Assembly: GCA_035765895.1 (NCBI GenBank)
Contig: DASTWL010000014.1
Span: 16,804-80,803 of the forward strand
Reading direction: 5' to 3'
Length of the DNA stretch: 64,000 nt
Source of the DNA: Verrucomicrobiia bacterium
GTDB taxonomy: Bacteria > Verrucomicrobiota > Verrucomicrobiia > Limisphaerales > DSYF01
Shown here one piece after another: positions 46 to 43,900 of this stretch. Made by a program: the position numbers and the translations under genes. Below the pieces are notes generated by a model. The model ran no database searches. It was given only the letters and a program-made list of their open reading frames with translations, and had not been told where the DNA came from. The number at the start of each line of letters is the position of its first letter. Positions within the stretch are counted from its first letter, which is position 1.

Positions 46-3000
46 TTAAGGAATCGAAATCCGGAAGAAGCGGCGGAGGTCGTCCGACGGGATGGCCCAG
101 TTCAGCGAGACCGGATCAAAGCCAAACGTGCCGGTGCGTTCCACGGTCCAGTCGGCCAGTGGCAAAGCCAGATTGGTGCTGGCCAAAATGGAATAACTCT
201 GTCCCGCCGCGCCGCTGAAGCAGAAATTGAATTCGCGGCTGCCGGACAGGCCGGCGCCCTGGACGGCCGGTGCGGGCACTTCCGGCGCCGGCGCCGTCGG
301 CACCACGGCCGACCAGCTGGTGCCCAGGCCAATGGCGCCGTAATCAAATTGTTTGCCGCTGTAACCGCCGCGCAAAAAAAACCGGTCGAAACTGAAATCG
401 CCGGAAACGCCGCCGAGGTAGGTCGTCGCGGAACTTTGACTGTTCTCGCCAGCGGTCGTGTCGGGATCAAGCCACACGGTCAGGGTGTCGTCGGCATTGG
501 CGTGGTAATCAATCCGCGCCACGAGCAAATGCACCTGCGCATCCACAAAAAGGTAATTGCCGCTGTGGTTGACGAGGTCCGCCGAGGTGCTGGTGGCGGG
601 CGACCAAAGGCTGAACGCCCAGGCGGATGAACTGTTGCCGATCAAAACTCCCGTGGTGTCATCGCTGCGGCTCAATTGCAGTCCGCCGTAGGCACCGTTT
701 CCGGTATCAAAATGCGCGCGAATCAGAAATCGCAGGTAGAGCGTGCCGCTGATGTTCCCACCGCCGATGGTGCCGCTGGCCGAATCCAGGAGCCCGGCGT
801 CCGCGAACGGTCCGCCGGCGGACAGGTCGGGCAATGCCTCCAAGTTGGAGCCGTCGCCCTTGACGGTGACCGTCCCGCCGGAGGAGTGGAGCAATGGCGA
901 GGTCAGCCCCGGAAAGGAAACGGTTGCCGCATCGGAAACACTCGCGCCAAAAGCATTGTCGAGCCCGAGCCATGAGCCGCCGGTGGCAAAACCGGTGCCA
1001 TGAAAGGCTGTTCCCGGAAGATTGCCCGCCGCGTAATTGCCGAAATTGTCTTCCAACAGAATCTGGCCGGCCGCCCATCCCGAAGCCGGAAAAACGGTCA
1101 GGCTAAACTGGGCGCTGGCGGTGTTGGCGCCATCGGTCACGGTCAACGTCACCGTGCTGCGGCCGGTGCCGCCGGGACTGGGTGTGAGCGTGACGGTGCG
1201 GCCGGCGCCCGTGCCGTCGATCACAATGTTTTGCGTGGTCAGCAGGTTGGTGTTGCTGGACGACGCGATGACGGTGAGCGGATTGCCGCCGGTTGAACTC
1301 ACCGTAAACGGAATGGCCGGGGTCGGCGTGGACGCAGCGGTGGTCTGGTTGGGCACCGTGGAAATGCCGACGGTGTTGTTGAGCGTCAGGTTGGAGAAAA
1401 CCGCCTGGTTGTAATGGGTGTCATCCACGGCATTGGTGGCAGCGATAGCCGCCGTGACAGCCAAACCCACGTAGGCCTGCGCATTGAATCCCGGAATGCT
1501 CACCGCCGCCACCTGGGTCCACTGCGCGCCGCTCGTGGAGGCGTAGGCGATGAAGCTGTCGCCCGTGCGCAGCAAGCGCAACCAGCATGGCGCCGTGAAT
1601 CCGGAGATGGTCGTGGTTTGTGCCGCCGCACCGGCGGTGGACCGGCTTTGAAACACCAGATGATTGTCGGCGGTCAGGGCAATCACGGCGTTGCGCGCGG
1701 TGGCGTCCAGACCTTCGCTGAACAGGATGCCGGCTTCCGCACCCGCGCTGGCGGATGGTTGGCCGGTCAGGCGCACCACCAATTGGGCATTGCTGACGCA
1801 GGGCTGATAAAGATAGTGAAAACCGTCGTTGGTGCCGCCGATGCCCGCGCCGCCGCCGCGCACGAGCCAGACGGCATTGGACGACGTGGACGCGCCCTCA
1901 ATGACGTTGCCGCTGGCACCGACACAGCCGATGTCACCGGAGGTCCACGGGCTGGAAGCCGAAGCGAACGTGGCGACCAGCACATTGCTCGTCAGCACGG
2001 AACTTTCCGGCAAAGTCACTTCAAAGACATCGGCATCCGGCGCGCCGTTGGCCGCCCCGAGCGGCATCGCCGTGGTGTTTTTCACGCGCCGCATGACCGG
2101 GCCGATGGGCTGGCCGTTCAGCGTGACTTGTGCCGGGGCAAGGTCATCCGGCCAGTGGGGCGGACGATGCAGCCGCGCCACCCATGAACGTTGGGTGAGC
2201 GCACCGGTGAAGGTGCCGGCGGCCGGAGCAATCGCAACGGAAACGGTTTTCGCCGCGTCATCCGCCCACGTTTTGAGGGTGGTGGTGCGGAACTGACCCG
2301 CTTGGTAAGCCGTGGTCAGGGTGTCATCCTCGTAAAGCGTCGTCTGGTCGGTTTCCGTGGTGCTCGGATACACGTCCAGCGTGACAGGATCCCAGGGCAA
2401 CTGCCCGGTGTATTCCATTTGCGGCGCGAGCGCAAAGATCGAACCGGAACGGATGAACAAGGGGATCTGGCCGAGCGGGGCGTCCACGGCGGCGGTGGCC
2501 GGGCCGTTCACGGTGGCGCCGGTCCAGGCATTGATCCATTTGCCCGGCGGAACCCAAAGGGTCCGGGACGGATTTGCCCCGAGCGATTGCAACGCAATCA
2601 CGTCTTTGCCGCCCAACTGCAAATACTCGAGGCGCAGCGAGCAGGTTTGGCCGGCTTTTAGGATGCTGCTGGACGTCGTGGTGACGGAGTCATTGGGGCC
2701 CCAATTGTCGATGCAAAGCTGGTTGTCCACCCAGACGCGCACGCCGTCGTCGGACAACGCGGCCAAATGCACGTCGCCGGCTCCGGGCGGGATGGTGAGG
2801 TTGCCAATCCACCGCACGGTGAAATTTTGCGCCGGCACGGAACCGCCGGGGCTGCCGCTGTTCCAATTGAAATCAAGGTTGGGATCCACCCGCGTCAACG
2901 TGGGCGCGCCGCTCAGGTTCGTGCTGGAAAAATAGGCGGCGTTCAGCCCAGGCTGGCCGTTTGTCGTGGTCAGCCACGACGACGGAATGGTGGTCGCGCC

Positions 3001-4569
3001 GCTGTCAATCATTGGGGCCACCAGCAGCGAATGGCCGATCAGGTATTGGTCCTCGCGGCTGGCGTCCGCGTATTGGGGGTAATCCAGATCCAAACGCCGG
3101 AGCAACGGTTCGCCCGTTTCATAATTCTCGTGCGCCGCGGCGTAGAACACCGGCAGCAGCCGATAGCGTAGGTTGAGCAGGCGCCGCGCCGTCCATTCGG
3201 CCTCCGGCCCAAAGGTCCACGGCATGCGCGTCAGGTTGTAGGTGCAATGCGGACGGTAGATGGGCGAGAGCGCGCCATATTCAATCCAGCGGATGTAACC
3301 TTCCGGAGTCGGATTGCTGGTGTGCCCGCCGAGATCGTCGCTTTCGTAGGGGAACAACGCTTGCACGCCCGAGTGAACGGCGTTTTGCACGGCGTATCGC
3401 AGATAGGTTGAGGAAGGGCCGATGTCGCCGGTCCATTGAATGGGATAGGTGTGCGCCGCGACGTTCATTGGCCGGTTGCGGACGCCGTTGTCGATGCCGT
3501 CAATGTTGGCCATGATCATCGGCCGCAAGGACGCGTTGGTGGCGTCCGTGGCGTCATGATAAACCCGCATCCCCCACACTTCGTGGCGCAAATTGGGCGA
3601 GGGCGACAACAAGCTGACGCCCCAGTTGCGGTCATACCACCAGACGTCCAATCCTTCGCCGAGCAGTTGTGTCAGGTTGGTGTAGCGATAAGTGACTTCC
3701 ACCGGATCCAGCGCATTCGCAGCCACCGGTTCGGGATGATCGTTGAACATCACGCGGACGTTGGCGGCGTGCGCTTCGGAAAGGAAACGCGGCATGTCGG
3801 GAAAGAAATTGGAATTGGGCTGGTAACCGGTGGAGGCGTTCACGCGCCAGCCCGTGTCGCAAACCAGCGCATCCAGCGGAATGGAACGCGAACGGTAGGC
3901 GGCAATCTGGTCCAGTGCTGTGGATTCGGTGTAATCATACCAGCGGCTGTCCCAGCAGCCGAACGCCCAGAGCGGAATCATGCCCGTGTGGCCGGTCAGT
4001 TTGAGAAAATCACTGCGCAACTGTTGGTAGCTGCCGTTGGGCACAAACACATAAACGTCGGGGGCATCGTTGTTCGTGTCCCAGCCGCTCGTGGACGCGA
4101 GCGGCGCGCCGGGTGGAGCGGGAGTTATGCCCCAGCCTGGCGGCATCAGACGTGGCGAATCGGCAAACGACCAGGACGCTGGTTTCTCCGCCGGCCCCGG
4201 CAGCCAGACGCTGTTGTTCAGGCTGCCGTCATACGTGAAGTTGGTCTGCCCGCCCGGCGACGTCAGGTAAATGCCGCTCAAGGACGTCGCGCCAGAGGGG
4301 ACATGCACCGTGTAGTTCGGCGTGGAGATCAGCACCTGCCCGGCTCCGAGATTGGTGGTGCTGGCGGTGCCCGGCCAGTCGCGGCTCACCACGTGAAACG
4401 TGGGACGGTCTTCAAATCCCTCCGGCCCCATCACCTCCAGCCGGACGAGGTTGCTGGACAGGCATTGAACACGGACGGAGCCGACAACCACGCTGTCGCC
4501 GGCGATGAGGTTCTGGCTGATGAGCCCAAGATTAACAACGGCAAACAGGGCAACGGTGGCAACTTTCAT
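46..4569 (-). CDS. Secreted glycoside hydrolase family 31 (alpha-glucosidase/alpha-xylosidase-like) with a PA14 insert, a C-terminal jelly-roll (TLY..WLDPD) domain and a terminal FYR-type module
   Basis: 1507-aa ORF with signal peptide MKVATVALFAVVNLGLISQNLIAG. GH31-like motifs VWWYDRNWG, IQWTGDIG and ESDDLGGH. PA14-like stretch GLNAAYFSSTNLSG..FTVRWIGNL..DDGVRVWVDNQLCIDNW. Tail contains GTLYLRF..TVWLDPD..FDRFFLRGG and ends RRFFRISIP. Confidence 0.8.
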   Translation of the reverse strand: MKVATVALFAVVNLGLISQNLIAGDSVVVGSVRVQCLSSNLVRLEVMGPEGFEDRPTFHVVSRDWPGTASTTNLGAGQVLISTPNYTVHVPSGATSLSGIYLTSPGGQTNFTYDGSLNNSVWLPGPAEKPASWSFADSPRLMPPGWGITPAPPGAPLASTSGWDTNNDAPDVYVFVPNGSYQQLRSDFLKLTGHTGMIPLWAFGCWDSRWYDYTESTALDQIAAYRSRSIPLDALVCDTGWRVNASTGYQPNSNFFPDMPRFLSEAHAANVRVMFNDHPEPVAANALDPVEVTYRYTNLTQLLGEGLDVWWYDRNWGVSLLSPSPNLRHEVWGMRVYHDATDATNASLRPMIMANIDGIDNGVRNRPMNVAAHTYPIQWTGDIGPSSTYLRYAVQNAVHSGVQALFPYESDDLGGHTSNPTPEGYIRWIEYGALSPIYRPHCTYNLTRMPWTFGPEAEWTARRLLNLRYRLLPVFYAAAHENYETGEPLLRRLDLDYPQYADASREDQYLIGHSLLVAPMIDSGATTIPSSWLTTTNGQPGLNAAYFSSTNLSGAPTLTRVDPNLDFNWNSGSPGGSVPAQNFTVRWIGNLTIPPGAGDVHLAALSDDGVRVWVDNQLCIDNWGPNDSVTTTSSSILKAGQTCSLRLEYLQLGGKDVIALQSLGANPSRTLWVPPGKWINAWTGATVNGPATAAVDAPLGQIPLFIRSGSIFALAPQMEYTGQLPWDPVTLDVYPSTTETDQTTLYEDDTLTTAYQAGQFRTTTLKTWADDAAKTVSVAIAPAAGTFTGALTQRSWVARLHRPPHWPDDLAPAQVTLNGQPIGPVMRRVKNTTAMPLGAANGAPDADVFEVTLPESSVLTSNVLVATFASASSPWTSGDIGCVGASGNVIEGASTSSNAVWLVRGGGAGIGGTNDGFHYLYQPCVSNAQLVVRLTGQPSASAGAEAGILFSEGLDATARNAVIALTADNHLVFQSRSTAGAAAQTTTISGFTAPCWLRLLRTGDSFIAYASTSGAQWTQVAAVSIPGFNAQAYVGLAVTAAIAATNAVDDTHYNQAVFSNLTLNNTVGISTVPNQTTAASTPTPAIPFTVSSTGGNPLTVIASSSNTNLLTTQNIVIDGTGAGRTVTLTPSPGGTGRSTVTLTVTDGANTASAQFSLTVFPASGWAAGQILLEDNFGNYAAGNLPGTAFHGTGFATGGSWLGLDNAFGASVSDAATVSFPGLTSPLLHSSGGTVTVKGDGSNLEALPDLSAGGPFADAGLLDSASGTIGGGNISGTLYLRFLIRAHFDTGNGAYGGLQLSRSDDTTGVLIGNSSSAWAFSLWSPATSTSADLVNHSGNYLFVDAQVHLLVARIDYHANADDTLTVWLDPDTTAGENSQSSATTYLGGVSGDFSFDRFFLRGGYSGKQFDYGAIGLGTSWSAVVPTAPAPEVPAPAVQGAGLSGSREFNFCFSGAAGQSYSILASTNLALPLADWTVERTGTFGFDPVSLNWAIPSDDLRRFFRISIP

Positions 4570-4670
4570 GTTATGGATCGATCGGACATTTCCCCGGTGC
4601 GGGGACTAAATGGAAAACGGCAAAAATGGTTCCGGCAAAATCACGGCAAACGGCGGACGGGGAAATCGCG

Positions 4671-5588
4671 TCACGGATTGATGTCCGTCGCAAAGTGGCT
4701 GGCCACGTAATACAGGTCTTCCTTGTCCGCGTTGGCCAGGGCACCGGCGCTCGAGGCGCCGCCAATGTTGTAATACTTGGAGGGACTCAGGCTGTTGGCA
4801 AAATTGATGACCAGTTGATTAACCCACTTGTGGGATTCCGCATGCCCATCGGCAAAGCTGAACGTGCTGTTGGCCCCGTGAAACGCCGCCGGCGAGTCAA
4901 CCCATTGGGCGGTAAAAAACGGCGAGGGGCCAATGTCCGGTCCGCCGGGCTTCATGTCCCACGCATGCTGGTTTTCGATGTAGGTCGCGCCCCCCAACGA
5001 CTGGGAAGCACATTCCTCCACCCACAAGAACCGGTCGCTCGCGTGCATCAGCTGGGATTCCTTGCTGATGGTTCCCAAGTGGCTGCCCGGAAAGGCGGTG
5101 CTGTCGCCGCCCACAAAGCCGCCGGCGCCCGAGTAGCTGTCCCAACAATACTGCGGCAAACTCTTCCGCACATCCCCGGGGCAATGCAGGACATCAGCGT
5201 TGGGCGCATAGGGATACAGCGGGCCGATTTTGTAGCCCTCCCGAAAACGCCATTGGATGGCGTCCTGACCCGAAAGGCTGGCGGGCGGCGTGGTGGGAAC
5301 CAAATCGGCCTCCACCCGCCAGTTCGCCGGGTTGGCGCCCGGGATCGTGCTGAAACCCACCACCCGGCCGGCATTGTCACTCACATACATCGTCCACGCC
5401 AGGGCCAGTTGTTTCTGGTTGCTCAGACACGTTGCCTGGGTTGCCCGTTTCTTTGCGGCTGACAACGCCGGCAGCAGCAGCGCCGCCAGAATGGCAATGA
5501 TGGCGATGACCACCAACAGTTCAATCAGCGTGAACCCGGCGCGCGTCCGGGCGGATTGACGGACCCTGGTTTTCCGCCGAAAGACCAT
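4671..5588 (-). CDS. Prepilin-type N-terminal cleavage/methylation domain protein with C-terminal H-X9-DG motif (pseudopilin-like)
   Basis: [25 protein letters not shown] prepilin signature. [14 protein letters not shown] fits H-X9-DG. The start was moved to the ATG at 5588 (MVFRRKTRV), which places the pilin motif near the N-terminus; the ORF track starts at 5714. Confidence 0.85.
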
Positions 5589-5641
5589 GATTTCTTCGAT
5601 GTAGATTTTCAACTTGTTCGTCCCGATTGAGGTTGCAAAGG

Positions 5642-5670
5642 CTGGCGGGGCCACCCCGGGACCCCGCCAG
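5642..5670 (-). terminator. GC-rich hairpin between the 1179-aa gene stop and the H-X9-DG gene start (possible terminator/attenuator)
   Basis: ctggcgggg (5642-5650) is the exact reverse complement of ccccgccag (5662-5670), giving a 9-bp stem with an 11-nt loop. Only a weak U tract (CCUUUGC) follows on the minus strand. Confidence 0.4.
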
Positions 5671-5720
5671 CTGTCCATGGCGCGCTGTTCCTTCAAGCCG
5701 CGGCCCGTTCCCAATGATTG

Positions 5721-8700
5721 CTACTGGCGCAGGCGATAAAATTCCGCCGCATTGGTGGTGGACAAAGGCTGCGGGTTGGATTGATTTGCCTTGTCGGTCC
5801 AGGGTCCGCTTACCGCAGGCGCACTTTGCAGCGTGCCGTCGCCGGTCCAGGAAAGCTGCCCGTTCTGGATGCTCAACCGTCCCGGTGGCACGACCGCGGG
5901 GAAGCCAAGGTCCTGCGCGGAGGCCGCGACGACCACGTTGGTAAACTCGGCAAAGGTCGATCCGTTGCCGCAACGCAGCCGGATGTTGTTGAACGTATTG
6001 TTCATGGAGACCGTCAACGGCGATTGCGGTTGGTTGGCCAGACTCTTGGAGAAGTCGGGATCCAGCCAGATGGACTCGGCCGTGGGGCCGTTGGAGGCAT
6101 ACACGCTCTTGATCACGAACGTATGCCATTCGCCCGGCACGATGGGCGTAATGGGCAACACATCGGGCTCACCCGCCTCCTTGGCATCCGCACTCCAATT
6201 CGTGGACAGCCAGGCGTTGCCGACCAGCAATCGTTCGCTGTTGTCCTGGAAGAAATGCAGGCCGCCAAAGGAGCCGCCGGCGTTGGGATCAGTTTGTGGG
6301 AAGTCGTAAAACACCATGCTGAACCGCGCGTAAAGCGTGTTCGTGGACGCGGGGCCGAAATTGCCGTTGAGCCAGCCGTTCTGCGAATCCCACAAGGTCA
6401 CGTATGAGCCTTCGTAAACATCGAACGGCCCATCCAATTTTACCGGCAGCGTGGGATACGAATCCGCCGTAAAGGACCACGTCGCGTAATACGGCGTGTT
6501 GTTCGAGTCCGTCAAACTGACTTGCACCGTGTGCGCCGATCCCGGCGTGAAGGCACTGGGCGGCTGGTAACTCATCGAGATGGAGCTGGCCGTGACGGTG
6601 AAGCTCGGGTCCACCGGATTGCCATCCAAAGTCATGACGACCGTGTTGGTGCCGATGCCGTAGGAGCCGAACAACACATCCACACCCACGGGCGTGGACA
6701 CCGGCGCGGACGAGGCGTTGACGGCAGGAACATAGTTTTGAAATACCGGATCCATCGAGGGGGCGAAGCCAACCCCGTCCGAAGTCGCCGCCACCAAGAT
6801 GTTGGAATACAGGGCGCTGGCCGGCGCGAAGCCCGCACGCAGACGGATGTTGTTGAACGCATTGTTGCAGGAAAGCTCCAGCGGGGGATTGGGTTGGGCG
6901 GCTTCAGTCTGGCCAAAGTCCGGGTCCAGCCAAACTTTAACCGTGGCATTGCCGCCGCCGGCCGGATAATCCGCGCGCACGACAAACGTGTGCCATTCAT
7001 TGGTCGCAAAAGGTATGTAGGGAGGAATGTCCGTGTCGGGAACCGCCGCCGCCACGCTCCAGTTGGCGGTGCCACCACCCTTGCCGGTCAGCAACCGCTC
7101 GGTGTTGTCCTGGAAAAATTGCAGGCCGCCCCAGGTGGGACCGGGTGGATTCAGATTAACAAAGTCCGCGCTGAAACGGACATACAGCGTTTTCGCAAGC
7201 GTCCCCTGATAATTGGTCCCGATCCAGGGATCGTTGGTCGCGGCGAAAATGACGGTGTCCACATTGTTGCTGGCGGCAAACGTCCGGTTCAGCGCGATCG
7301 GCAGGGCGGCGAAACCGGTCGTAAAAGTCCACGTGTTCGTGAACGAACTGCTGTTCGCATCCGTGACCACCAGTTGAACGGTGTGCAGCGTGCCCGAACT
7401 CAGGGGCGTCGAGGGTTGGTAACTGATCCCGAGGATGCTCGGGGAAATCGCGCTCGTGTCCGGCGTGACAGCGCTGCCGCCATCAATGCGGAGCGAGGCG
7501 GACTGGATGGGGTAACCGCCCACGAGCACCTGCGCGCCGATGCTGGTATTGGTGGCGATGTCAAACGATCCCGGCGCCGGAAGCTGCGCCTGGAATTGCG
7601 GTGCCACCGAAGGTGGAAATCCCACGTCGGTCGGTTGCGCGCCCACGATGATGTTGGTCCACGTGGCGCTGGCCGTGCCATTGCCGCAGCGGAGCCGGAC
7701 GTTGTTGAAACTGACATCCGCGCTCAGCGTGACCACATTTGTCTGCGCTTCCTGCGGTTGGCTGAAATCGGGATCCAGCCAGATTTTCACGCTGTCGTTG
7801 CCATTGGTCTGAAAGTCGATGCGCTCGACGATGGTATGCCATTCGCCCAACACCACGGGCGTCAGTGGATTGAGATTCATCTGCAGGCCGCCCGCATCCA
7901 GGCTCCAGTTGGTGGAAACCCACGCGTTGCCGGCGATCAGCTTTTGCGCATTGTCCTGCATGAAATGCAAACCGCCGTAACCGCCGCCATTGCCGGTTTC
8001 GCCATTCAGGTCATTGAAGACCATGCTGTATCGGGCATAAAGAGTCCGGACGGAGTTGGTGTCATAGTTGGTGCCCAGCCAGGCTTCACCGGCGGCTGTA
8101 AGAATCGTCAGATCATTGCCACCGCCCGTGGTCAGCGGTCCGGCCAGCGCCACCGGCAATGCCGCGTAGCCCGTGGTAAAGCTCCACGTGTTGGTGTAGG
8201 AAACCGTGTTGTCGTCCTGCACGATCACCCGAACCGTGTGCGTCGTGCCATAGTCAAATGTCGAGACCGGCGTGTAACTGATGCCCATGAGACTCGAACT
8301 GCCGGTGACGGTGGGCGTGACCGCATTGCCGTCGAGCGAGAACGACACGGACGCCAAATTCAGCGGCACACCGCCGGAGGCCACATTCAGGCTGATCGTG
8401 GCGTTCGTCGCCACGCTCAGAGCACCCGCCCCGGGCGAAAGCGCCTGAAACGACGGTGGCGTGGCGGAAATAATCGTCAGCCGGTCAAACTGATAATCCT
8501 GGCCGTTGCCAGGCGAGGTGCCGGCATTGCGCCGGATGAAGGCCGACTGGGCGATGGGCGCATTCGCGATGGTCCCGGTGAAACTGGCCCCAGTGGCCAG
8601 ATCGGTGAACGTATAAGTCGTGGCACTGTTCAAGGTGAACTTGTAGGTGACAAATTGCTGGTAGGCATACTGAAAGTTGGTCGCCACCCCCACGCTCGTG

Positions 8701-9182
8701 GTGGCATCGCTATACCAGCCATTCAAATTGTCGCCGCCCAGATGCCAGTAGCTGAACAAAATGTTTCCGCCTGCGTCTTCGAGCGCAAAACGGTTCGTGG
8801 TATTCCCGTTGTCCAAACTGTTCAAACGCAAGGCCACCAGAAAGGAATCTCCCGGCGAGAGGGGCGTGTTGAAAGGACGGATCGCCTCGGTGCCGTTGTT
8901 GGCCGAGGTGTTCCACAAATCAAATGAGTAACCACTCGGGCCGTTGTTTTGAATGAACGCGCCGCCCGTGCCCGTCACGGTAAAGGTCCAGGGGCCGAAG
9001 CCGTAGCCGCCGTTCTGGCCGCCCGTGCCCAATCCGTTGGGTGCGCCCAGTCCGGTGTAGGCAGGATCAGAGGCCTGATCAAAGGCATTGGTGGTTTGGG
9101 CGGAAGCCTGGTTCATGGCCAGCCAGGTCGTGACCAGGGCAGCCATCATCAGCGATGTCTTGCAGTGGGTTCGTTGTTTCAT
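5721..9182 (-). CDS. Large secreted protein: N-terminal domain, three tandem [Ig-like + TLY..WLDPD jelly-roll] modules, terminal FYR-type module
   Basis: Signal peptide MKQRTHCKTSLMMAALVTTWLAMNQASA if the start is the ATG at 9182. Repeated motifs in each module: NTW(S/T)FTTG, TLYARFSMVF, GGLHFFQDN, IWLDPDF, FNNIRLRCGNG. Ends AAEFYRLRQ. Confidence 0.8.
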   Translation of the reverse strand: MKQRTHCKTSLMMAALVTTWLAMNQASAQTTNAFDQASDPAYTGLGAPNGLGTGGQNGGYGFGPWTFTVTGTGGAFIQNNGPSGYSFDLWNTSANNGTEAIRPFNTPLSPGDSFLVALRLNSLDNGNTTNRFALEDAGGNILFSYWHLGGDNLNGWYSDATTSVGVATNFQYAYQQFVTYKFTLNSATTYTFTDLATGASFTGTIANAPIAQSAFIRRNAGTSPGNGQDYQFDRLTIISATPPSFQALSPGAGALSVATNATISLNVASGGVPLNLASVSFSLDGNAVTPTVTGSSSLMGISYTPVSTFDYGTTHTVRVIVQDDNTVSYTNTWSFTTGYAALPVALAGPLTTGGGNDLTILTAAGEAWLGTNYDTNSVRTLYARYSMVFNDLNGETGNGGGYGGLHFMQDNAQKLIAGNAWVSTNWSLDAGGLQMNLNPLTPVVLGEWHTIVERIDFQTNGNDSVKIWLDPDFSQPQEAQTNVVTLSADVSFNNVRLRCGNGTASATWTNIIVGAQPTDVGFPPSVAPQFQAQLPAPGSFDIATNTSIGAQVLVGGYPIQSASLRIDGGSAVTPDTSAISPSILGISYQPSTPLSSGTLHTVQLVVTDANSSSFTNTWTFTTGFAALPIALNRTFAASNNVDTVIFAATNDPWIGTNYQGTLAKTLYVRFSADFVNLNPPGPTWGGLQFFQDNTERLLTGKGGGTANWSVAAAVPDTDIPPYIPFATNEWHTFVVRADYPAGGGNATVKVWLDPDFGQTEAAQPNPPLELSCNNAFNNIRLRAGFAPASALYSNILVAATSDGVGFAPSMDPVFQNYVPAVNASSAPVSTPVGVDVLFGSYGIGTNTVVMTLDGNPVDPSFTVTASSISMSYQPPSAFTPGSAHTVQVSLTDSNNTPYYATWSFTADSYPTLPVKLDGPFDVYEGSYVTLWDSQNGWLNGNFGPASTNTLYARFSMVFYDFPQTDPNAGGSFGGLHFFQDNSERLLVGNAWLSTNWSADAKEAGEPDVLPITPIVPGEWHTFVIKSVYASNGPTAESIWLDPDFSKSLANQPQSPLTVSMNNTFNNIRLRCGNGSTFAEFTNVVVAASAQDLGFPAVVPPGRLSIQNGQLSWTGDGTLQSAPAVSGPWTDKANQSNPQPLSTTNAAEFYRLRQ
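5877..8447 (-). repeat. Three tandem coding repeats of about 855 nt (285, 284 and 288 aa modules) inside the 5721-9182 gene
   Basis: Module boundaries counted from the translation: 7593-8447, 6741-7592 and 5877-6740. Each module starts Q(A/N).. and ends ..GF(P/A)PS/PAV. The motif order is conserved, but the repeats are diverged at the DNA level. Confidence 0.8.
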
Positions 9183-9448
9183 AGGGGTTTGTGTCAGCTT
9201 GTCGGCGTTTGCGTTCCCGCTTGAGGGAAAATGAACCAATAATTTCAGATTGGTGACCAATCCGTGGTGGTGGCGCTGCGATCACCAACCTCGCGCGACC
9301 ATTCGACCGGGGAGCCGCTCGCACGGCGGTCCGCAACGAAATCGGCCCGGCGCCGTCAGACGTCTTCGAACCACTTGTCACCGTGGCCGACGTCGAGAGA
9401 CCGCTTACGAGAATGGGCTAAAAATAGAGCCGCAGTTGGAACGGACAA

Positions 9449-9466
9449 TACCCATGAACGTGGGTA
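9449..9466 (-). promoter_or_regulatory. Candidate NarL/LuxR-type operator: TACCCA-N6-TGGGTA inverted repeat upstream of the 1179-aa gene
   Basis: The plus strand reads ACAATACCCATGAACGTGGGTA. TACCCAT matches the E. coli NarL heptamer TACYYMT. The half sites TACCCA and TGGGTA are exact reverse complements. It lies 267-284 nt upstream of the start at 9182. The left half plus flank recurs at 10454-10469. Confidence 0.45.
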
Positions 9467-9530
9467 GTCAGCCTTCGCGCCCGCGCGACCGGAGAGGCGG
9501 GCGTCAATTCAATTTGCGCATCGAATGGAC

Positions 9531-9568
9531 GGACAACAAACCCGGCATTCACCTCAACGAATGCCGGG
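9531..9568 (-). terminator. Rho-independent terminator after the PEP-CTERM gene
   Basis: 10-bp stem cccggcattc / gaatgccggg (9541-9550 / 9559-9568) with an 8-nt loop, followed on the minus strand by UUUGUUGU. It starts 27 nt after the stop at 9595. Confidence 0.7.
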
Positions 9569-9594
9569 GAGTCGTTCATCACGAGCCAATAAAC

Positions 9595-10350
9595 TCACAT
9601 TCCGCGTCCGGAACGACGACGCAAAACCGCCAGCAACCCCACGCCCGCCCCAACCAGCGCCAGCGATGACGGCTCCGGCACGGGACTGATGTCCACGGTC
9701 AGGTTGTCCAGGTTGATGTCAGCGCTGTTGCCGTTGCCGATTCTCAACCCGTCAAGCGCCAGGCCGGCCGGTCCGGTGCCGCTGGCAGAAAACCCGGAGG
9801 ATGAGAACGTCCAGGCGCCGGTGTCGTATTCGTAAGTCAGCGTCAGGTGATTGTTCAGCGTGCTGTCGGCACCAAAGTAGCGGCCAATGGAGCCGTCCGT
9901 GCCCCAGGCAGAAGCGCTGGGATCGCCCGCAAACATTGTTTCCGATCCCGGGTTGTTGGCGTCCACAAAACCCGCATACAGGCTGATTCCCGCCCAGCCA
10001 TTGTTGAGTGACGCACCATTGGACGGCGGAAGCGTGTCGAAAGAAAGCGTGAGCACCTCGCCGGCTCCCAAAGCGGCGGTGAAGCTGTTGAACAGCAGCC
10101 GCTGATCGCCGCTGGTGTCCAACGAATTGGCCGCGCTGACGGCCGCCGGGCCCGGATTGGCCCCGGCGCTTCCGCCCCAAAGCCCCCCGACGTCCGCGGC
10201 TTTGCCGATGATCAAGGTTCCCGGAGCTTCGCTAAAATCATCAGAAAACACAGTGCTTCCGCGGCACAGGGACGGGCAGGCTGCCAGCGCCAGGCCGGCA
10301 AACAAGGGAGTCAAAACGTGAATTGAGCGACGGAAGAGCGGTTGTTTCAT
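9595..10350 (-). CDS. PEP-CTERM sorting domain secreted protein
   Basis: Signal peptide MKQPLFRRSIHVLTPLFAGLALAA. C-terminus VPEPSSLALVGAGVGLLAVLRRRSGRGM has the PEP motif, a TM helix and a basic tail. The body has a degenerate version of the neighbouring jelly-roll motifs (GWAGISLYAGF.., LDGLRIGNGNSADINLDNLTV). Confidence 0.85.
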   Translation of the reverse strand: MKQPLFRRSIHVLTPLFAGLALAACPSLCRGSTVFSDDFSEAPGTLIIGKAADVGGLWGGSAGANPGPAAVSAANSLDTSGDQRLLFNSFTAALGAGEVLTLSFDTLPPSNGASLNNGWAGISLYAGFVDANNPGSETMFAGDPSASAWGTDGSIGRYFGADSTLNNHLTLTYEYDTGAWTFSSSGFSASGTGPAGLALDGLRIGNGNSADINLDNLTVDISPVPEPSSLALVGAGVGLLAVLRRRSGRGM

Positions 10351-10457
10351 GCGCAGGTTTTTTGTTTTAGGAATCCAAATGTCACCCCGGGTCGTTTTTG
10401 AGCGACCGGCTCAAGGGGATCGGCGGGAGAGGCTACAACTGCTGCGGGGCGCAACAA

Positions 10458-10475
10458 TACCCATAAACGGGTGTA
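10458..10475 (-). promoter_or_regulatory. Second candidate NarL/LuxR-type site, upstream of the PEP-CTERM gene
   Basis: The plus strand reads ACAATACCCATAAACGGGTGTA. It is identical to the 9445-9460 site at 15 of 16 positions (ACAATACCCAT[G/A]AACG). The right half is degenerate. It lies 108-125 nt upstream of the start at 10350. Confidence 0.4.
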
Positions 10476-10569
10476 TGCCAAACCAGTTGGAGTCGGCCGC
10501 AGGCGGGAACATCAAAACCCATCGCGCGGGGTTCAGCGCCATTGATGCCCGGTCACGCCGGCCCGTGTT

Positions 10570-11253
10570 TTACGGCACCACGAAAGGCGGGGGCTGCAGA
10601 TATTTCGCCGCCGCTTCACCCCGCGAATGGACGTGCAGCTTGGCGTATATGTGCTTCACGTTCATGCGGACGGTTTCGATGCTGAGCGATAGCTGATGCG
10701 CGATGTCCTTGTAAGTCGAGCCCTTGGCAAGCAGTTCCAGCACTTGTTGTTCCCGCGGAGACAGGGCGGCCACGCTGTCGTCCTTGGCGGCGCCGATCTG
10801 GTTGAAGTAAGCCACCACCTTGCGGGCAATGCTGCTCGACATGGGCGAGCCGCTGCCATGCACCTGCCGGATCGCCTCCAACAACTCCCCGGTGCTGGTG
10901 CGTTTCAACAGGTAACCACTGGCGCCGGCCAGCAGCGAATTGAAAATTTTCTCGCTCTCCTCATAGACCGTCAGCATGAGACACCGCACTTCCGGCCAGA
11001 GCGTTTTGAGCCGTTTGACGCACTCCACACCGTCCATGCCCGGCAGGTTGATGTCCATCAGCACCACGTCGGGCGCATCATTGGGGATGCCCCGCAGGGC
11101 TGCCTCCGCTGTTCGATACGCATTGACGCAGTTCAAGTCCGGATCGCTGTTGATTTCCCGGGCCAGATTTTCCCGCAACCAGGCCTGGTCCTCGACGATC
11201 ACCACCTTGATCCGGGCGGTGGCGGAACGGTTTTTGTCACCGGTAGTTTTCAT
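10570..11253 (-). CDS. Two-component response regulator, NarL/FixJ (LuxR HTH) family
   Basis: REC motifs VVIVEDQ and DVVLMDINLPGMDG. LuxR-type HTH LSPREQQVLELLAKGSTYKDIAHQLSLSIETVRMNVKHIYAKL. The start overlaps the kinase stop by 4 nt. Confidence 0.95.
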   Translation of the reverse strand: MKTTGDKNRSATARIKVVIVEDQAWLRENLAREINSDPDLNCVNAYRTAEAALRGIPNDAPDVVLMDINLPGMDGVECVKRLKTLWPEVRCLMLTVYEESEKIFNSLLAGASGYLLKRTSTGELLEAIRQVHGSGSPMSSSIARKVVAYFNQIGAAKDDSVAALSPREQQVLELLAKGSTYKDIAHQLSLSIETVRMNVKHIYAKLHVHSRGEAAAKYLQPPPFVVP

Positions 11254-12653
11254 GATGCGGTTTTCCCCCGGCGGATCGGAAAATAAAATCTCACGTCGGT
11301 GCCCGCTCCCGGCCGGGTGGCAAATTCCACCCCACCGCCGATGGCGCTCATTCGTCGCTGCATGTTTTCCAGGCCATTTCCCACGCCGGTGGCTTGATCG
11401 AGCCGGAAGCCTGTGCCGTTGTCCGCCACCCGGATGGAAATTTGATTTTCTCCCACCTGCAAAGCGAGCTGGATTTCCGTGCAGGCCGCATGCTTGACGG
11501 CGTTGTTCAAGGCTTCCTTGACCACCATGAACAGGGCGTGCCGGACCTCGGCCGTCACCGGCAGGTCAGGCAGGGCCAGCGGCACCTGCAACTGGCAGGC
11601 GATGGTGGTTGAACCCAGCAGATCCTTCATGAAATACACGAGGTAGTCGGCCATTTCCTTCAACGTGTCGTTCCGGGGATTGATCGCCCAGACGATTTCG
11701 TCCATGGCCCGGATGGTGTCGCGGGCCGTTGCTGCAATGGTCTGGCGCGTCTCGGCGTTCGCCTCCCTGACCTGCTCATGCAGCTCCATCAAATCGCTGA
11801 GCTTGCTGATTTTTGTGAGGCTTACCCCCACTTCATCGTGAATGTCCTGGGCGATGCGGGTCCGCTCCGTCGCGACCGCCCGCTCCTTTTCAAGCTGCTG
11901 GATTTGGACCTGGGCACGCCGCCGTTCCAACAGCTGCACCGCCCCCGCCACCGCCGCCAGCAACATCGCCACGCAGATCGCCACGAACCACCATGCCTGC
12001 CAGAAATGCCGCAACAGCACGTCTTCAAATGACGTTCCCACCACCATCTCGCTGAACTTCCAGCCCCCACCGTAGCCCCGATGGATCAGGCGGAATTCGT
12101 CGAAGGTGGCGTCGGTCTCAAAATGAACCACGATGTTCCTGGGCTGGTTGAATTCGGTCGCCCCGGTGGAAAGATCCGGGTTCAGCCAGACCGTGACGCG
12201 CGCGTCCCGACCGGGCTCGTAATCAATTTTAAAAACGATATACCGCGGCGTGCCGGCCCGCATATACTCGTAGGCAAACGGCGGATCGGGAGACGCCGAG
12301 TTGAAATCCTGGAAGCCCTTCGGTGCCTTGGGCACATGCAGGGCCGAGTAAGCCATGGCCCCTCCGGCATTGCCGATGCCCAAGTGCTCCTGCCGTTTTG
12401 CCACCAGCATGAATCCGGCCTCGAATTGATTGATCACCTTCGCGGCCGTGTCGGAAATCGGATCGACCTTGATACGAAAATAAAGCGTGCCAGACGAATT
12501 GGTGGTCTGTGGCGGAATTGCCCCGTGAAGAATGTCCTCCCCGTCGCCGTTGTTGCAAACCAGGACCGCTCCAGGATGGCTCCACAAAATCGCGCCCCGT
12601 GCGGGAAACGCAACGGCCAGAAACGCGACGGCCAACATGACCGCCGCGCTCAT
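11250..12653 (-). CDS. Sensor histidine kinase (HisKA_3/NarX-LiaS type) with a periplasmic TLY..WLNPD jelly-roll-like sensor domain
   Basis: H-box RIAQDIHDEVGVSL. HATPase motifs EALNNAVKHA, DNGTGF and GNGLENM. Signal/TM1 MSAAVMLAVAFLAVAFPARG from the ATG at 12653, and TM2 WWFVAICVAMLLAAVAGAV. The sensor domain spans about 12018-12593. Confidence 0.9.
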   Translation of the reverse strand: MSAAVMLAVAFLAVAFPARGAILWSHPGAVLVCNNGDGEDILHGAIPPQTTNSSGTLYFRIKVDPISDTAAKVINQFEAGFMLVAKRQEHLGIGNAGGAMAYSALHVPKAPKGFQDFNSASPDPPFAYEYMRAGTPRYIVFKIDYEPGRDARVTVWLNPDLSTGATEFNQPRNIVVHFETDATFDEFRLIHRGYGGGWKFSEMVVGTSFEDVLLRHFWQAWWFVAICVAMLLAAVAGAVQLLERRRAQVQIQQLEKERAVATERTRIAQDIHDEVGVSLTKISKLSDLMELHEQVREANAETRQTIAATARDTIRAMDEIVWAINPRNDTLKEMADYLVYFMKDLLGSTTIACQLQVPLALPDLPVTAEVRHALFMVVKEALNNAVKHAACTEIQLALQVGENQISIRVADNGTGFRLDQATGVGNGLENMQRRMSAIGGGVEFATRPGAGTDVRFYFPIRRGKTAS

Positions 12654-12824
12654 CCGCCTGACCTCGTGATTGCCTTGGAGTGTCCTGCGCGCCCGGCCCG
12701 CTTCGCCACACCACGCTTCCATGTGCCGGTGTCCTTGAAGCGTGAGGGTTTTGTGGGAGGTCTTCACCGTTGATGCCGTTGCCCGGATTCATGGGGAACA
12801 GCCTGGCCCGGGCTTCAAAGGCGG

Positions 12825-15713: not shown

Positions 15714-17042
15714 ATGAGATCAGCCCTGATCGTCGATGACGACGCGGATTACCGCGCGCTGGTGGCCGACCAGTTGCGAACCGGCGGCTGGGCTTTTTGG
15801 GAGGCGGACAACGGCGAGCGCGCCATGGAGCTGATCCGCGAACACCGGCCGGCGGTCGTGGTCTGTGACCTGTTGATGCCGCGCGGCAACGGGTTCCAAG
15901 TCTGCCAGAATTTGCGGTCCGATCCCCAATTGCGCGGCACGCGCATTGTCATCACCACGGGCCGCTCGTTTCCCAGCGACCGGCAGGCCGCCCTGGAAGC
16001 AGGAGCCGACGCTTATTTTGTGAAACCGTTCGATGTGCCCACGCTGGTGCACATGTTGCAGGAGCTTGTTGAGAGCCCGACCACCACGCCTCCGCCGCCG
16101 GCCGCCGGTGCTGCAGACGAACGCGTCTGGTTGAAATTCTGGGGCGTGCGCGGTTCGATTGCCACGCCCGGTCCGGCCACGGTTGGTTACGGTGGCAACA
16201 CGGCATGCGTCGAACTGCGCGCCCACGGTCAGATCATCATCCTGGACGCAGGCACGGGCTTGCGCGCGCTGGGCCGTGAACTGACGCGCGAATTCAAGGA
16301 ACAGCCCCTGCAGTTAGACATCCTGCTCACCCACACGCATTGGGACCACATCCAGGGGCTGCCGTTCTTTCAACCTCTTTACCGGTCCAACAACCGCATC
16401 CGCATCTTCGGCTACGAAGGGGCGCGCAACGGGCTGTTCAAAGTCCTCTCCAGCCAGATGGAAAGCCCCTACTTCCCCGTGGGTTTCGAGGAACTGCCCA
16501 GCAACGTCGAGATTGATGAATTGCGGGACATGGATTTCCCGGTGGGCAACGTTCGCGTGCAGGCATTCTTCGCCAACCACCCGGGCATTTGTGTGGGCTA
16601 CCGGCTGACGACCCAGGCCGGCTCCGTGGCTTTTTTCCCGGACAACGAACCGCCCAACCGGCTCCATCACCGGCCCGAGGGAAGTCCGCCGGCCGTCAAC
16701 ACCCGCTTTGCGCAGAGCGAATCGCGCAAGCTGGTCGAGTTCCTGCGGGACACGGATGTGTTGATTTTGGATGCCCAATACGATGCGGAAGAATACGAAC
16801 GGCACAAGGGCTGGGGCCACGGCTGTGTGAACGACGTCGTTGAACTCGCCATCGCGGCCCACGCCAAACGGCTTTACCTCTTTCACCACGATCCGGACCA
16901 CGACGACGCGAAGATTGGTTCCATGGTGGAACAGGCCCGGCAACTGGCCGCACAGCGGCATTCGACCATCGAGATTGAGGCCGCCCGCGAAGGGATGGTG
17001 GTTCAACTGAACACCCCGAAGCCGGCCGGCGGCGAAACGTGA
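15714..17042 (+). CDS. Response-regulator receiver domain fused to an MBL-fold metallo-hydrolase
   Basis: REC motifs LIVDDD, VVVCDLLMPRGNGF and YFVKP. A Pro-rich linker follows. MBL motif LLTHTHWDHIQGLPFF plus a later HHDPDHDD. Confidence 0.85.
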   Translation: MRSALIVDDDADYRALVADQLRTGGWAFWEADNGERAMELIREHRPAVVVCDLLMPRGNGFQVCQNLRSDPQLRGTRIVITTGRSFPSDRQAALEAGADAYFVKPFDVPTLVHMLQELVESPTTTPPPPAAGAADERVWLKFWGVRGSIATPGPATVGYGGNTACVELRAHGQIIILDAGTGLRALGRELTREFKEQPLQLDILLTHTHWDHIQGLPFFQPLYRSNNRIRIFGYEGARNGLFKVLSSQMESPYFPVGFEELPSNVEIDELRDMDFPVGNVRVQAFFANHPGICVGYRLTTQAGSVAFFPDNEPPNRLHHRPEGSPPAVNTRFAQSESRKLVEFLRDTDVLILDAQYDAEEYERHKGWGHGCVNDVVELAIAAHAKRLYLFHHDPDHDDAKIGSMVEQARQLAAQRHSTIEIEAAREGMVVQLNTPKPAGGET

Positions 17043-40773: not shown

Positions 40774-40905
40774 AGGGCGCGGAGAGTGCCGGGAAGCGCC
40801 CGCACGGACAATGCAATTTTGGAACCGGAATAAGTTCAAAAAAAGCCTTGGCCCGCCGCGACTGCATTGCCATTTTTTCAGAAAGGAGCACCCCCCAGAT
40901 CGACC

Positions 40906-43900
40906 ATGAACTTTTCACGTCCTGGCCTCATCGCCTGTCTCGCCCTGATCAATTTCGCTTTGTCAGCCCGGGGCGGCGTGGCGCCCAGCATCATCAGCGG
41001 TCCCGTCGGCCGCGTCGCGCCCGCCGGCACAAACATCGCATTCAGCGTAACCGCCGACGGGACGGCTCCCCTGCTCTATCAATGGTATTTCAACAGCAAC
41101 GCCATCCCGGATGAGACAAATGCCACGTTGCTTTTGACCAATGTGCAATCGGCCAATGCCGGGCCGTATTTCGTGACGGTGTCGAACGATTTCGGCGCCA
41201 CCAACAGCGGCGTCGCGAATTTGGTGGTGAACAACGCCGCGCCGATTTTCTGGTCACAGCCGCAAGGCATGTCAACGTGGCCGGGATCTGCCGCGCTGCT
41301 CTCCGCGGGTTATGTTGGCAGCACACCGCTGACGCTTCAGTGGCGTTTGAACGGGGTCGATTTGCCGGGCGCGACGAACGCGGCCCTGGCCCTGCCCAAC
41401 GTGCAATTCAGCGACGGTGGCAGTTATGTGCTGCTGGCGTCCAACGCCTACGGCACCCGGCTTACCACACCGGCGCCGTTGAACGTCGCGGAATTGGCTG
41501 CCTGGGGCGCCGGCGCGGCCAGCGTCGTCACCCTGACCAACTACGGGCAGAGCTTCCCGCCCAACGGCCTGAGCAACCTGCTGGCCGTGGCGGCCGGCGG
41601 CTGGCACAGCCTCGCGTTGCTGCCCAATGGCCGGGTGGCAGCGTGGGGCTACAACAACGTCGGCCAGATCAACAACTTCATTCCCGCGACCAACGTGGCC
41701 GCCATTGCCGCCGGCTGGGAACACAACCTGGTTCTGCGCAGCAACGGCACGCTGGCGGCCTGGGGTTACACGGCCTACAGCCTGACGCAAATCACCGCCG
41801 CCATGACGAACGTCGCCGCCATTGCAGCCGGCTGGTTGCACAACGTCGCCGTTCGCAGCAACACCACCGTGTTTGCCTGGGGATTAAATGCGTATGGCCA
41901 GACGAATGTCCCGCCGGGCTTGAGCAACGTCGTGGCGGTGGCCGCCGGCTACGGTCACAGCCTGGCCTTGAAAGCCGACGGCCAAGTGGTCGCCTGGGGA
42001 CTCAACACCAGCGGGCAAACCAACGTGCCGGCGGATTTGAGCGATGTGGTGGCGATTGCGGCCGGAGCCTCCAACAGCCTCGCCTTGACGGTGGACGGCA
42101 CCGTCGTCGCGTGGGGCGCCAACGACTACGGGCAAAGCACGGTGCCCGCCGGACTGAGCAACGTCATTGCCATCGCGGCCGGCGGCGCCCATGCGCTCGC
42201 CCTCCAAAATGACGGCACAACGGTGGCCTGGGGGCTGGACAATCATCAACAGGCAACGGTGCCCGCCAGCCTGCCGACGGTGGCGGGAATTGCTGCCGGC
42301 CAGTTTCACAGCCTAGGTCTGCTCACGGACAATTCGCCTCACTTTGTGCGCCGGCCATTGGATCATCTCGGCTATGAAAACAATCCCGCCTACCTGAGCG
42401 CGGCCGCCTGCGGGCTCGCACCGCTGCACTATCAATGGCTCCGCGGCGTAACAGCCGTTGAAGGAGCAACGAACGCCACCCTGAGTCTGGCCAGCGCGCA
42501 ACTCGGCGACACGGGAACCTACCAACTGGTGGTCACCAACGATCTGGGCGCCATCACCAGCACACCGGTCGCATTGACGATTCTTTCGTCCCGGCCCTAC
42601 TTCGTCATCCAGCCGACCAATTACGTCACCCTCGCCGGAACCAATGCGACCTTTTCGGCTTTGGCCACCAGCCCTTGGGGCAGCAGCTATCAATGGCAAT
42701 TCAACGGCGCGAATCTCCCGAATGAGACCAACGCCACGCTGACCCTCGTCAACGTGCAACTGGTCAACGAGGGCTCCTACTCGGTCGTGGCCAGCAACCT
42801 CAACGGCAGCATCACGAGTTCGAACGCCTACCTCGACGTCCTCACGCTGCCGGAGGCGCTGAACGCCACAAACCTGACTTGGAACACCTTTGGCGACGTG
42901 CTTTGGAAGCCCGCATTTTCGCCGGCCTACGCCAATCCCGGCGTCGGCCTGTGCGGTCCGCTGACGCCCACGCAGCAAGGCTTCTTGCAGACAACGGTCG
43001 TCGGCCCCGGCACGTTGAGTTTCGCGTGGCAGGCGCCGGTTTACGCCAACTTGAATTTCGAACTCGACGGTCTCCAACAGGGTTTTGTTCAGATGAGTTC
43101 AACGTGGCAGCCGCGGACGTATTATCTCTCCGCGGGCTCGCACGTTCTGACCTGGATTGCCTCCCTGTCCTTCACCCCGTTCGGCTCGGGGTATGGCTAT
43201 CTGGACGCGGTCACGTTCACACCCGGAGCCACGCCCGTGACGCTCACGGCACAGCCCGCCAGCAAAACATTGCCCGCCGGAACCAATGCGATTTTCAGCG
43301 TGGGCGCCGCGGGCACTCCGCCCTTGAGCTACCAATGGAGTTTCAACGGCACCAATCTGCCCGGTGCCACCGGAGCTTCGCTGGCCCTCCATGACATTCA
43401 GGCCGGCGCCACCGGCACCTACCGCGTAACCGTCAGTAATGACTACGGTGGACAATCGAGCACCAACTTTTCGCTCGTCGTTACGCCAGCCGCGCCCGTT
43501 CTGTTGACCCAGCCAATCGCCCAGCAGATGCTGGTGGGCGGCGCGGTGCTGTTTAGTGGCACGGCCCAAGGCACCCAGCCCATCACCTACCAATGGCGCC
43601 GGAACGGCGTTGATCTGCCGGGCGCCACGAACACCTTGCTGATGCTTGCAGACGTGCAACTGACAGACGCGGCGGATTACTCCTTGTCGGCCAGCAACGT
43701 GATCGCCGAAACAGTCAGTTCCAATGCCTGCCTGTTCGTTTACGAACTGCCTGACTTGGTCTCCGCCTTGGGCGGAACCGGCATCACGTGGAGCACCGAC
43801 ACCAACGCGCCCTGGTTTCCTCAAACCAACGTGACGCATGACGGCGTGCTGGCTGGTCAAAGCGGCGCGCTGGCGACAAACAGTCAGTCGTCCGTGCTCA

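Follow-up and report, generated by a model that had tools for sequence, protein, structure and literature searches.

In the RsgI/sigma-I systems of Clostridium thermocellum and its relatives, the extracellular sensors are CBM3, PA14 or glycoside hydrolase (GH)-like modules, similar to those of the enzymes under their control (PMC6852018, PMC4711584, PMC10328401); a polysaccharide sensed outside the cell induces the secreted proteins that match it. Here we describe a gene cluster of comparable logic that occupies the left end of a 64-kb stretch of verrucomicrobial DNA (contig DASTWL010000014.1; the whole stretch is called the window below). It encodes a histidine kinase whose periplasmic sensor is a homologue of modules found in two secreted proteins of the same cluster. 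As in RsgI, the extracytoplasmic domain of the sensor is of the same kind as the modules on the secreted carbohydrate-active proteins that it presumably controls. The machinery differs: a HisKA_3 kinase and a NarL-type regulator take the place of an anti-sigma factor and sigma-I with regulated proteolysis, the sensing domain is predicted to be an uncurated ConA-like jelly roll, and in place of a cellulosome producer the bacterium is a verrucomicrobium of the Limisphaerales/Pedosphaera type, with a PEP-CTERM and a pseudopilin-like protein as partners. Because Pfam and NCBIfam scans found no sigma or anti-sigma domains in the cluster proteins, the locus is not a member of the RsgI/sigma-I systems and resembles them in logic only.

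With the NarL/LiaS class of two-component systems the locus shares the HisKA_3 and HATPase_c core, a regulator built of REC and GerE domains, overlapping genes, a periplasmic domain held between two membrane segments and a candidate operator with TACYYMT-like inverted heptamers. NarL recognises the heptamer TACYYMT, classically with half-sites spaced 7-2-7. Here the spacing is 7-4-7 (or 8-2-8) instead, and the sensor is a predicted beta jelly roll rather than a four-helix NarX-type, Cache or PAS domain. The predicted jelly-roll sandwich itself is that of the PF14099/ConA-like clan (PL7, PL14, PL20, PL36, GH131, toxin Hc domains and lectins), with a weak match to the central strands of PF14099; unlike the lyases of this clan, the module has a signature of its own (TLYxR, WLDPD, FDxxRL).

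The hybrid two-component systems and polysaccharide utilization loci of Bacteroidetes offer a further parallel: they too embed a sensor beside a glycoside hydrolase and surface glycan-binding proteins, and they have the Reg_prop/Y_Y_Y domains of their periplasmic glycan sensors in common with some relatives of our kinase (group B, below). The kinase of the window, however, is not a hybrid with a fused AraC output and is devoid of Reg_prop/Y_Y_Y; by Pfam, neither these domains nor SusC/SusD are present in the six cluster proteins, and we do not class the locus as a PUL or HTCS of the Bacteroidetes type. In the literature we found no ConA-like kinase sensor and no description of this type of locus. 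Altogether, the locus is a two-component system whose predicted jelly-roll sensor is new, uncurated and paralogous to the modules of its putative regulon; it is not a new principle.

The module defines a sizeable uncurated extracytoplasmic family, nearly restricted to Verrucomicrobiota and relatives, that is used in two ways: histidine kinases have it as their sensor, and secreted or PEP-CTERM-anchored proteins carry it in repeats. Bacteria of the Limisphaerales type abound in soils and waters. Most of them are uncultured, and how they harvest glycans is poorly understood. The locus offers compact, testable parts: a sensor, a candidate operator and a candidate regulon (the multi-module, PEP-CTERM, pseudopilin-like and GH31 proteins). 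If sensor and secreted modules share a ligand, the principle of a sensor borrowing its binding module from the proteins under its control, as seen in clostridial anti-sigma factors, would hold for two-component systems of another phylum as well.

A module shared by the kinase sensor and secreted proteins

The six genes of the cluster all lie on the minus strand, in the transcriptional order kinase, regulator, PEP-CTERM protein, three-module protein of 1179 aa (big3 hereafter), pseudopilin-like protein and GH31 enzyme. The kinase (505 aa, 11250–12767) consists of a hydrophobic N-terminal segment, a periplasmic module of about 190 residues, a second membrane helix, HisKA_3 (Pfam, 1.1e-7) and HATPase_c (7e-14); as read off the sequence, the hydrophobic segments span aa 41–56 and 258–280. 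Its periplasmic sensor (aa 59–250; 12018–12593, minus strand) is one copy of the module according to HMM, hhalign, AlphaFold and Foldseek comparisons. More than 100 full-length kinase homologues of 450–520 aa were found, with a sensor identity of 59–99%.

The response regulator (10570–11253, minus strand) is of the NarL/LuxR class, with a REC domain (Response_reg, 6.6e-24) and a GerE helix-turn-helix (3.1e-16); its NCBIfam NarL-like matches stay below cut-off. The first 4 bases of its gene are also the last 4 of the kinase gene (11250–11253). Kinase and regulator form a NarL-class two-component pair by domain content, with all four Pfam domains above cut-off.

Secreted copies of the module are found in two proteins. 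In big3 (5721–9260, minus strand), a signal peptide and an N-terminal domain are followed by three repeats of an Ig-like Big_5 spacer (Pfam, 3.3e-7) plus module, and by a C-terminal FYRLRQ tail; part of the protein also matches PF14099. The three copies lie on the minus strand at 7581–8195 (HMM i-E 2.1e-71), 6729–7355 (1.3e-63) and 5877–6473 (1.8e-69). The secreted GH31 alpha-glycosidase (1507 aa; 46–4569, minus strand; Glyco_hydro_31_2nd 2.2e-39, PA14 3.1e-21) has a single copy in its tail, at about aa 1194–1429 (283–990, minus strand), with an i-E of 4.9e-56 to the mixed profile. In the 64-kb window, the module HMM matches the kinase, big3 and the GH31 protein only.

Over its ~190 residues the module displays the ordered signature TLYxR, GN, WS, WLDPD, Q and FDxxRL. 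The original prediction had noticed such a motif set in the GH31 tail, the big3 modules and the kinase sensor, and the motifs it quoted are indeed there: TLY is at aa 1276 of the GH31 protein, at aa 406, 691 and 975 of big3 and at aa 94 of the kinase, with W[LV][DN]PD at aa 1366, at aa 494, 777 and 1065, and at aa 194, respectively. Among 40 sequences of the family, the columns G60, G74, W136, L137, P139 and F164 are invariant, and T36, Y38, R40, D140 and Q150 nearly so.

The big3 modules are mutually 41–47% identical. For the GH31 tail and the kinase sensor, BLAST gives an alignment of 164 aa with E = 2e-6 (at a database size of 2e6 residues). We also compared leave-out HMMs at Z = 5000, the secreted-only profile being made from multi-module proteins without kinases and without the GH31 tail. 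This profile recovers the kinase sensor (aa 89–250) at E = 4e-10 and the GH31 tail at 1.2e-17; conversely, a kinase-only profile recovers big3 at 8.4e-13 and the GH31 tail at 8.9e-7. Profile-profile comparison by hhalign, with the Ig-spacer and sorting-tail columns trimmed from the alignments, relates the kinase profile to the secreted ones with 98.6% probability (E = 9e-16, 143 columns). The refutation test set beforehand was whether such profile or structural comparison would separate the sensor from the secreted modules. Both unite them, the structural part being given below: the kinase sensor is a homologue of the secreted modules, with the same predicted fold.

The sensor is only distantly related to the modules next to it. 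Its identity to them is ~25%, against 32–35% (full length) to single-domain PEP-CTERM proteins encoded elsewhere, and hhalign ranks the relatives in the same way (E = 1.6e-34 for the single-domain PEP-CTERM proteins, 9e-16 for the adjacent modules). We therefore rejected a recent duplication of the adjacent modules into the kinase.

Predicted fold of the module

No Pfam or NCBIfam model matches the kinase sensor or the GH31 tail, and a sequence search of the PDB with the sensor gave no match. The one curated family with a partial match to the module is PF14099 (Polysacc_lyase), to which big3 scores 38.6 bits as a whole-protein sum (cut-off 29.9), with about 55 of 210 profile positions covered per module and a best stretch that corresponds to profile positions 110–169. 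Module 1 alone reaches 18.4 bits, under the cut-off. Given the partial coverage, the sub-threshold score of a single module and the lack of a match in the sensor and the GH31 tail, we rejected the module as a bona fide member of PF14099. Calling the domain unnamed was thus essentially right: besides this partial match, it belongs to no curated Pfam or NCBIfam family.

We modelled the kinase sensor and big3 module 3 with AlphaFold (AF2), the latter from a kinase-free alignment. Both models are all-beta, with pLDDT values of 95.5 and 91.1, respectively. They have the same strand order: the DSSP state is equal at 146 of 177 aligned positions, and 75 of 85 strand residues coincide.

Searched against the PDB with Foldseek, the two models give overlapping ConA-like matches, those in common being 2zzj, 6kcv/6kzk, 8q28/8q2a, 4le3, 2w68, 1af9, 3mpp and 9h8i. 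The matches include glucuronan lyase (2zzj), alginate lyase Aly36B, TtX122, GH131, the lectin domain of a Vibrio sialidase and clostridial neurotoxin Hc; by class, they are PL7/PL14/PL20/PL36 lyases, GH131, lectins and toxin Hc domains, with probabilities of 0.99–1.0. TM-scores are only 0.35–0.54 and identities 7–15%, so that there is no close solved relative. On these models, the fold is predicted to be a ConA-like lectin/glucanase jelly roll, in agreement with the jelly roll guessed originally from the letters. TtX122, a distant structural neighbour only, is itself of unknown function.

Recurrence of the neighbourhood

Using the module HMM and the window's own proteins, we scanned 55 related loci, whose kinases sort into three groups, A, B and C. 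Those of group A are orthologous to the kinase of the window: they are ~480 aa long, and their sensors are 55–76% identical to its own. Fifteen group-A loci have enough flanking sequence (L001, L003, L005, L006, L009–L014, L016, L018, L020, L021 and L054). In all 15, kinase and regulator stand directly beside a protein of two to three modules with an FYRL tail, whose gene follows downstream on the strand of the pair or is transcribed divergently.

The neighbourhood extends further. Twelve of the 15 loci encode, next to the multi-module protein, a close relative of the pseudopilin-like protein (phmmer 1e-100 to 1e-160); L016 and L021 have a more distant homologue there (~1e-29), and none was found beside the multi-module gene of L009, L012 and L014. 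A GH31 gene is often present as well, one locus having GH106 instead.

Group B comprises kinases of 1230–1430 aa with a sensor identity of 41–47% (in L022–L026, L028–L030, L032, L034, L035 and L042, and proteins P0179 and P0184), in which the module precedes the Reg_prop beta-propellers and Y_Y_Y, followed by HisKA_3. Group C consists of small kinases whose sensors are ~40% identical. That neighbourhoods of a kinase and a secreted paralogue should recur in related genomes is therefore borne out by the 15 group-A loci: the association is robust but confined to one kinase lineage.

Operator-like palindromes and regulator subfamilies

A common palindrome, TACCCAT-N4-ATGGGTA, lies upstream of the multi-module genes; its gene-oriented consensus is TACCCATGTTCATGGGTATTGTT. 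We take its half-site TACCCAT to fit the NarL heptamer TACYYMT. In the window, the cross-locus consensus locates one operator-like palindrome upstream of the big3 gene, at 9449–9466 (TACCCACGTTCATGGGTA on the gene strand, 1 mismatch), and another lies ~110 bp upstream of the PEP-CTERM gene, at 10458–10475 (TACACCCGTTTATGGGTA on the gene strand, 3 mismatches); in the latter, the gene-proximal half plus TTGTT is perfect. In 12 loci, the palindrome precedes the multi-module or the PEP-CTERM gene or lies in the intergenic stretch in front of a divergently oriented kinase gene. Sites with at most one mismatch number 11 in 792 kb of non-redundant related loci, against ~0.2 expected (0–1 in shuffles).

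Two regulator subfamilies accompany kinases with very similar sensors, and they partition exactly with two palindromes. Regulators of the first subfamily (~1e-100 to that of the window) are encoded in the window itself and in L003, L005, L010, L012–L016, L018, L020, L050 and L054; these loci carry the first palindrome, of which L003 and L050 have only the gene-proximal half-site. The regulator of L014 is truncated and scores 8e-66. In six loci (L001, L006, L009, L011, L021 and L051) the regulator is a more distant paralogue (phmmer ~1e-51 to the window's), and the loci with this second subfamily are without TACCCAT-N4-ATGGGTA: a different palindrome, TGACGCAATTGCGTCA, occupies that position. 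That the palindrome changes with the regulator subfamily argues more strongly than any other observation for control of the multi-module and PEP-CTERM genes by the adjacent regulator.

Breadth of the module family

An exhaustive HMMER search retrieved 796 clusters (at 50% identity) with E ≤ 1e-3, of which 124 have E ≤ 1e-30. Among the best 146 clusters, 31 end in a PEP-CTERM signal, 14 in an FYRL-type tail, and 21 carry the HisKA_3 H-box. The module is otherwise partnered with Reg_prop and Y_Y_Y in kinases, and with BACON, Ricin, FG-GAP/TSP3 and PATR domains. Genomic matches come almost all from Verrucomicrobiota (Verrucomicrobiia, Pedosphaera, Limisphaerales), with a few in Pontiella and Haloferula and one in Thermoguttaceae. 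The family was reached only with an alignment as query: a word-indexed protein search returned no more than 14 matches with the sensor alone and 3 with a single big3 module.

One family member, P0138 (1766 aa), has two modules N-terminal to GH31, PA14 and DUF5110, and so fuses the counterparts of two neighbouring genes of the window.

A putative glycan-sensing circuit and its alternatives

We propose that the cluster is a glycan-sensing two-component unit controlling paralogous surface and secreted proteins, a model in which we place slightly more confidence than doubt. The periplasmic jelly roll would bind a ligand, most likely a carbohydrate, and the occupied kinase would phosphorylate the NarL-type regulator. 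The regulator would in turn bind the palindrome and switch on surface or secreted proteins whose paralogous modules bind related material; it would also activate the pseudopilin-like protein and the GH31 alpha-glycosidase, which would trim that material. A link with carbohydrates is suggested by GH31, PA14 and GH106 as neighbours and by Reg_prop/Y_Y_Y, BACON and Ricin as partners of the module. The self-contained sense-and-respond unit of the original prediction gains support, as a unit, from the conserved synteny and the palindrome, while its ligand and the direct regulation are only what we infer.

Several points weigh against this model. The module family has no member with a known ligand, and the structural matches are so distant (TM-scores of 0.35–0.54) that the fold class gives neither specificity nor proof of sugar binding. 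Binding of the palindrome by the GerE-type regulator, for its part, is deduced from position and co-variation only. The count of palindromes in the window by itself is not significant (3 against 0.8 expected), the case for them being made by the comparison across loci. The synteny is conserved within one lineage, and hence counts as one evolutionary association, not as independent ones. Group-B kinases have an adjacent regulator but no module-bearing neighbour, and no such neighbour accompanies the kinases of group C either. Finally, with only ~25% identity to the adjacent modules and a closer relationship to single-domain PEP-CTERM proteins encoded elsewhere, the sensor gives no reason to assume a ligand shared through recent duplication.

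This low identity, together with the group-B and group-C kinases that stand without a paralogous neighbour, also favours another explanation: the module may be a generic scaffold, a lineage-expanded extracytoplasmic beta-sandwich that Verrucomicrobiota put to various uses. The kinase would then still regulate its neighbours but sense something unrelated to the ligand of the secreted modules, and the shared domain would be mechanistically meaningless. The 796 clusters with their varied partners (PEP-CTERM, FG-GAP/TSP3, PATR, BACON, Reg_prop kinases) are what such reuse would produce. It accounts poorly, however, for the confinement of the module to this one cluster within the 64-kb window and for the adjacency in every one of the 15 group-A loci that have enough flanking sequence, including those in which rearrangement has made the genes divergent. 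Neither does it predict that the polar residues Y38, R40, D140 and Q150 be retained in at least 90% of sequences across sensors and secreted modules. We consider generic reuse unlikely.

Strict co-inheritance of the kinase and the multi-module protein, as well as the paralogy of their domains, would also be expected if the sensor recognised the secreted paralogues themselves, for example by homotypic beta-sandwich pairing, and reported their load or export status as feedback instead of a free glycan. The putative operator in the kinase-divergent intergenic region is consistent with the autoregulation that such feedback might involve. Yet signal peptides and C-terminal tails suggest that the secreted proteins are at the surface or extracellular, away from the periplasmic sensor, and the kinases of groups B and C use the module without such partners; protein-protein sensing of this kind seems improbable to us. 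We give very little credence to the view that the modules are divergent polysaccharide lyases (PF14099-like, PL7/PL20-type) and the sensor an inactive lyase-like domain binding a uronate polymer or its products: big3 does exceed the PF14099 cut-off (38.6 against 29.9 bits) and the best Foldseek matches are alginate and glucuronan lyases (4ozx, 2zzj, 6kcv), but the PF14099 match covers only ~55 of 210 positions and falls to 18.4 bits for a single module, TM-scores are 0.35–0.5, lectins and toxin receptor-binding domains score about equally, no histidine is conserved across the family alignment, and both the threefold tandem with Ig spacers and the position appended to GH31 are typical of binding modules.

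The glycan-sensing model has a more speculative extension, a matched-receptor circuit. Since sensor and surface modules would be paralogues with the same binding site, the surface modules could compete with the sensor, hand ligand to it or contact it, and kinase output would then be a readout of how far the surface lectins of the cell itself are occupied, not of the concentration of free ligand. We regard this as a long shot; if true, it would be an undescribed two-component feedback design with a co-evolving, regulator-specific operator.

The PEP-CTERM protein and N-terminal domains of multi-module proteins

The PEP-CTERM protein of the cluster (251 aa; 9595–10350, minus strand) is recognised as a PEP-CTERM/exosortase substrate by Pfam PF07589 with 25.3 bits (cut-off 20.7). 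It had been said to contain a degenerate version of the module, which holds in part. Taken as a single sequence, it has no module match and only its sorting tail aligns, and as a plain member of the family it was rejected. The WLDPD loop is also absent from its body, which the kinase profile does not match significantly. At the level of family profiles, however, hhalign relates the central 81 columns to the secreted-module profile (98.4%, E = 7e-15), and on this profile-profile result we retain the protein as, at best, a distant and partial relative of the module.

The same PEP-CTERM body forms the N-terminal domain of multi-module proteins in four related loci (phmmer 1e-46 to 1e-83): L013 (4156–6768), L016 (15676–18294), L048 (3647–6208) and L052 (772–3453). 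There it stands in place of the QTTNAFD-type N-terminal domain of big3. The latter was considered as a relative of the module or of the PEP-CTERM body and rejected, being unrelated.

Other features of the cluster and window

The pseudopilin-like protein (4671–5714, minus strand) has a prepilin-type N-terminal methylation motif (Pfam N_methyl, 5.2e-8). The GH31 protein contains, in addition to its catalytic part and tail module, a PA14 insert, DUF5110, further beta domains and a C-terminal FFRISIP; the nearest solved relatives of the enzyme are GH31 alpha-glycosidases and alpha-xylosidases. Its PA14 insert (window 2600–2950, aa ~540–655) matches the PA14 sensor of RsgI3 (6qe7, E = 5.5e-33) and also the PA14 protein 6qdi. 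Between the catalytic part and the tail module, aa 972–1040 (nt ~1450–1655) give a weak match to DUF1349 (ConA-like, E = 0.0066) and a weak cadherin-like/tandem-95 match. The protein probably carries further uncharacterised beta-sandwich domains, to judge from its sequence.

The starts of the longest open reading frames (GTG 12767 for the kinase, TTG 9260 for big3 and TTG 5714 for the pseudopilin-like protein) are probably too far upstream, because homologue lengths and signal-peptide positions favour others: ATG 12722 or 12653 for the kinase, ATG 9182 for big3 and ATG 5588 for the pseudopilin-like protein. Read from ATG 9182, big3 begins with a canonical signal peptide followed by AQTTNAFD, matching its homologues. 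The start at ATG 5588 leaves a gap of ~130 bp after the big3 gene, and we do not claim translational coupling of the two.

Of the module-bearing secreted proteins, big3 terminates in AEFYRLRQ (window 5721–5870) and the GH31 protein in RRFFRISIP (46–250). Nearly all multi-module homologues (in L001–L054) close with a ~50-residue domain followed by an F[YF]R[LV] tail, over which Pfam has no model. This tail may be a lineage-specific C-terminal sorting or anchoring domain, an alternative to PEP-CTERM.

Upstream of the kinase lies a housekeeping gene, for aspartate-semialdehyde dehydrogenase, and at the other end the cluster may extend past the left edge of the window. Two giant, probably secreted proteins are encoded farther away on the plus strand, neither of them matched by the module HMM: one of 1700 aa with RCC1 repeats and many Ig domains (40867–45969), the other of 1434 aa with Laminin_G_3, Big_9 and a glucose/sorbosone dehydrogenase domain (49243–53547). 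The plus strand also encodes, at 15714–17042, a Response_reg domain fused to Lactamase_B_2, of the metallo-beta-lactamase fold, which is an uncommon response-regulator output.

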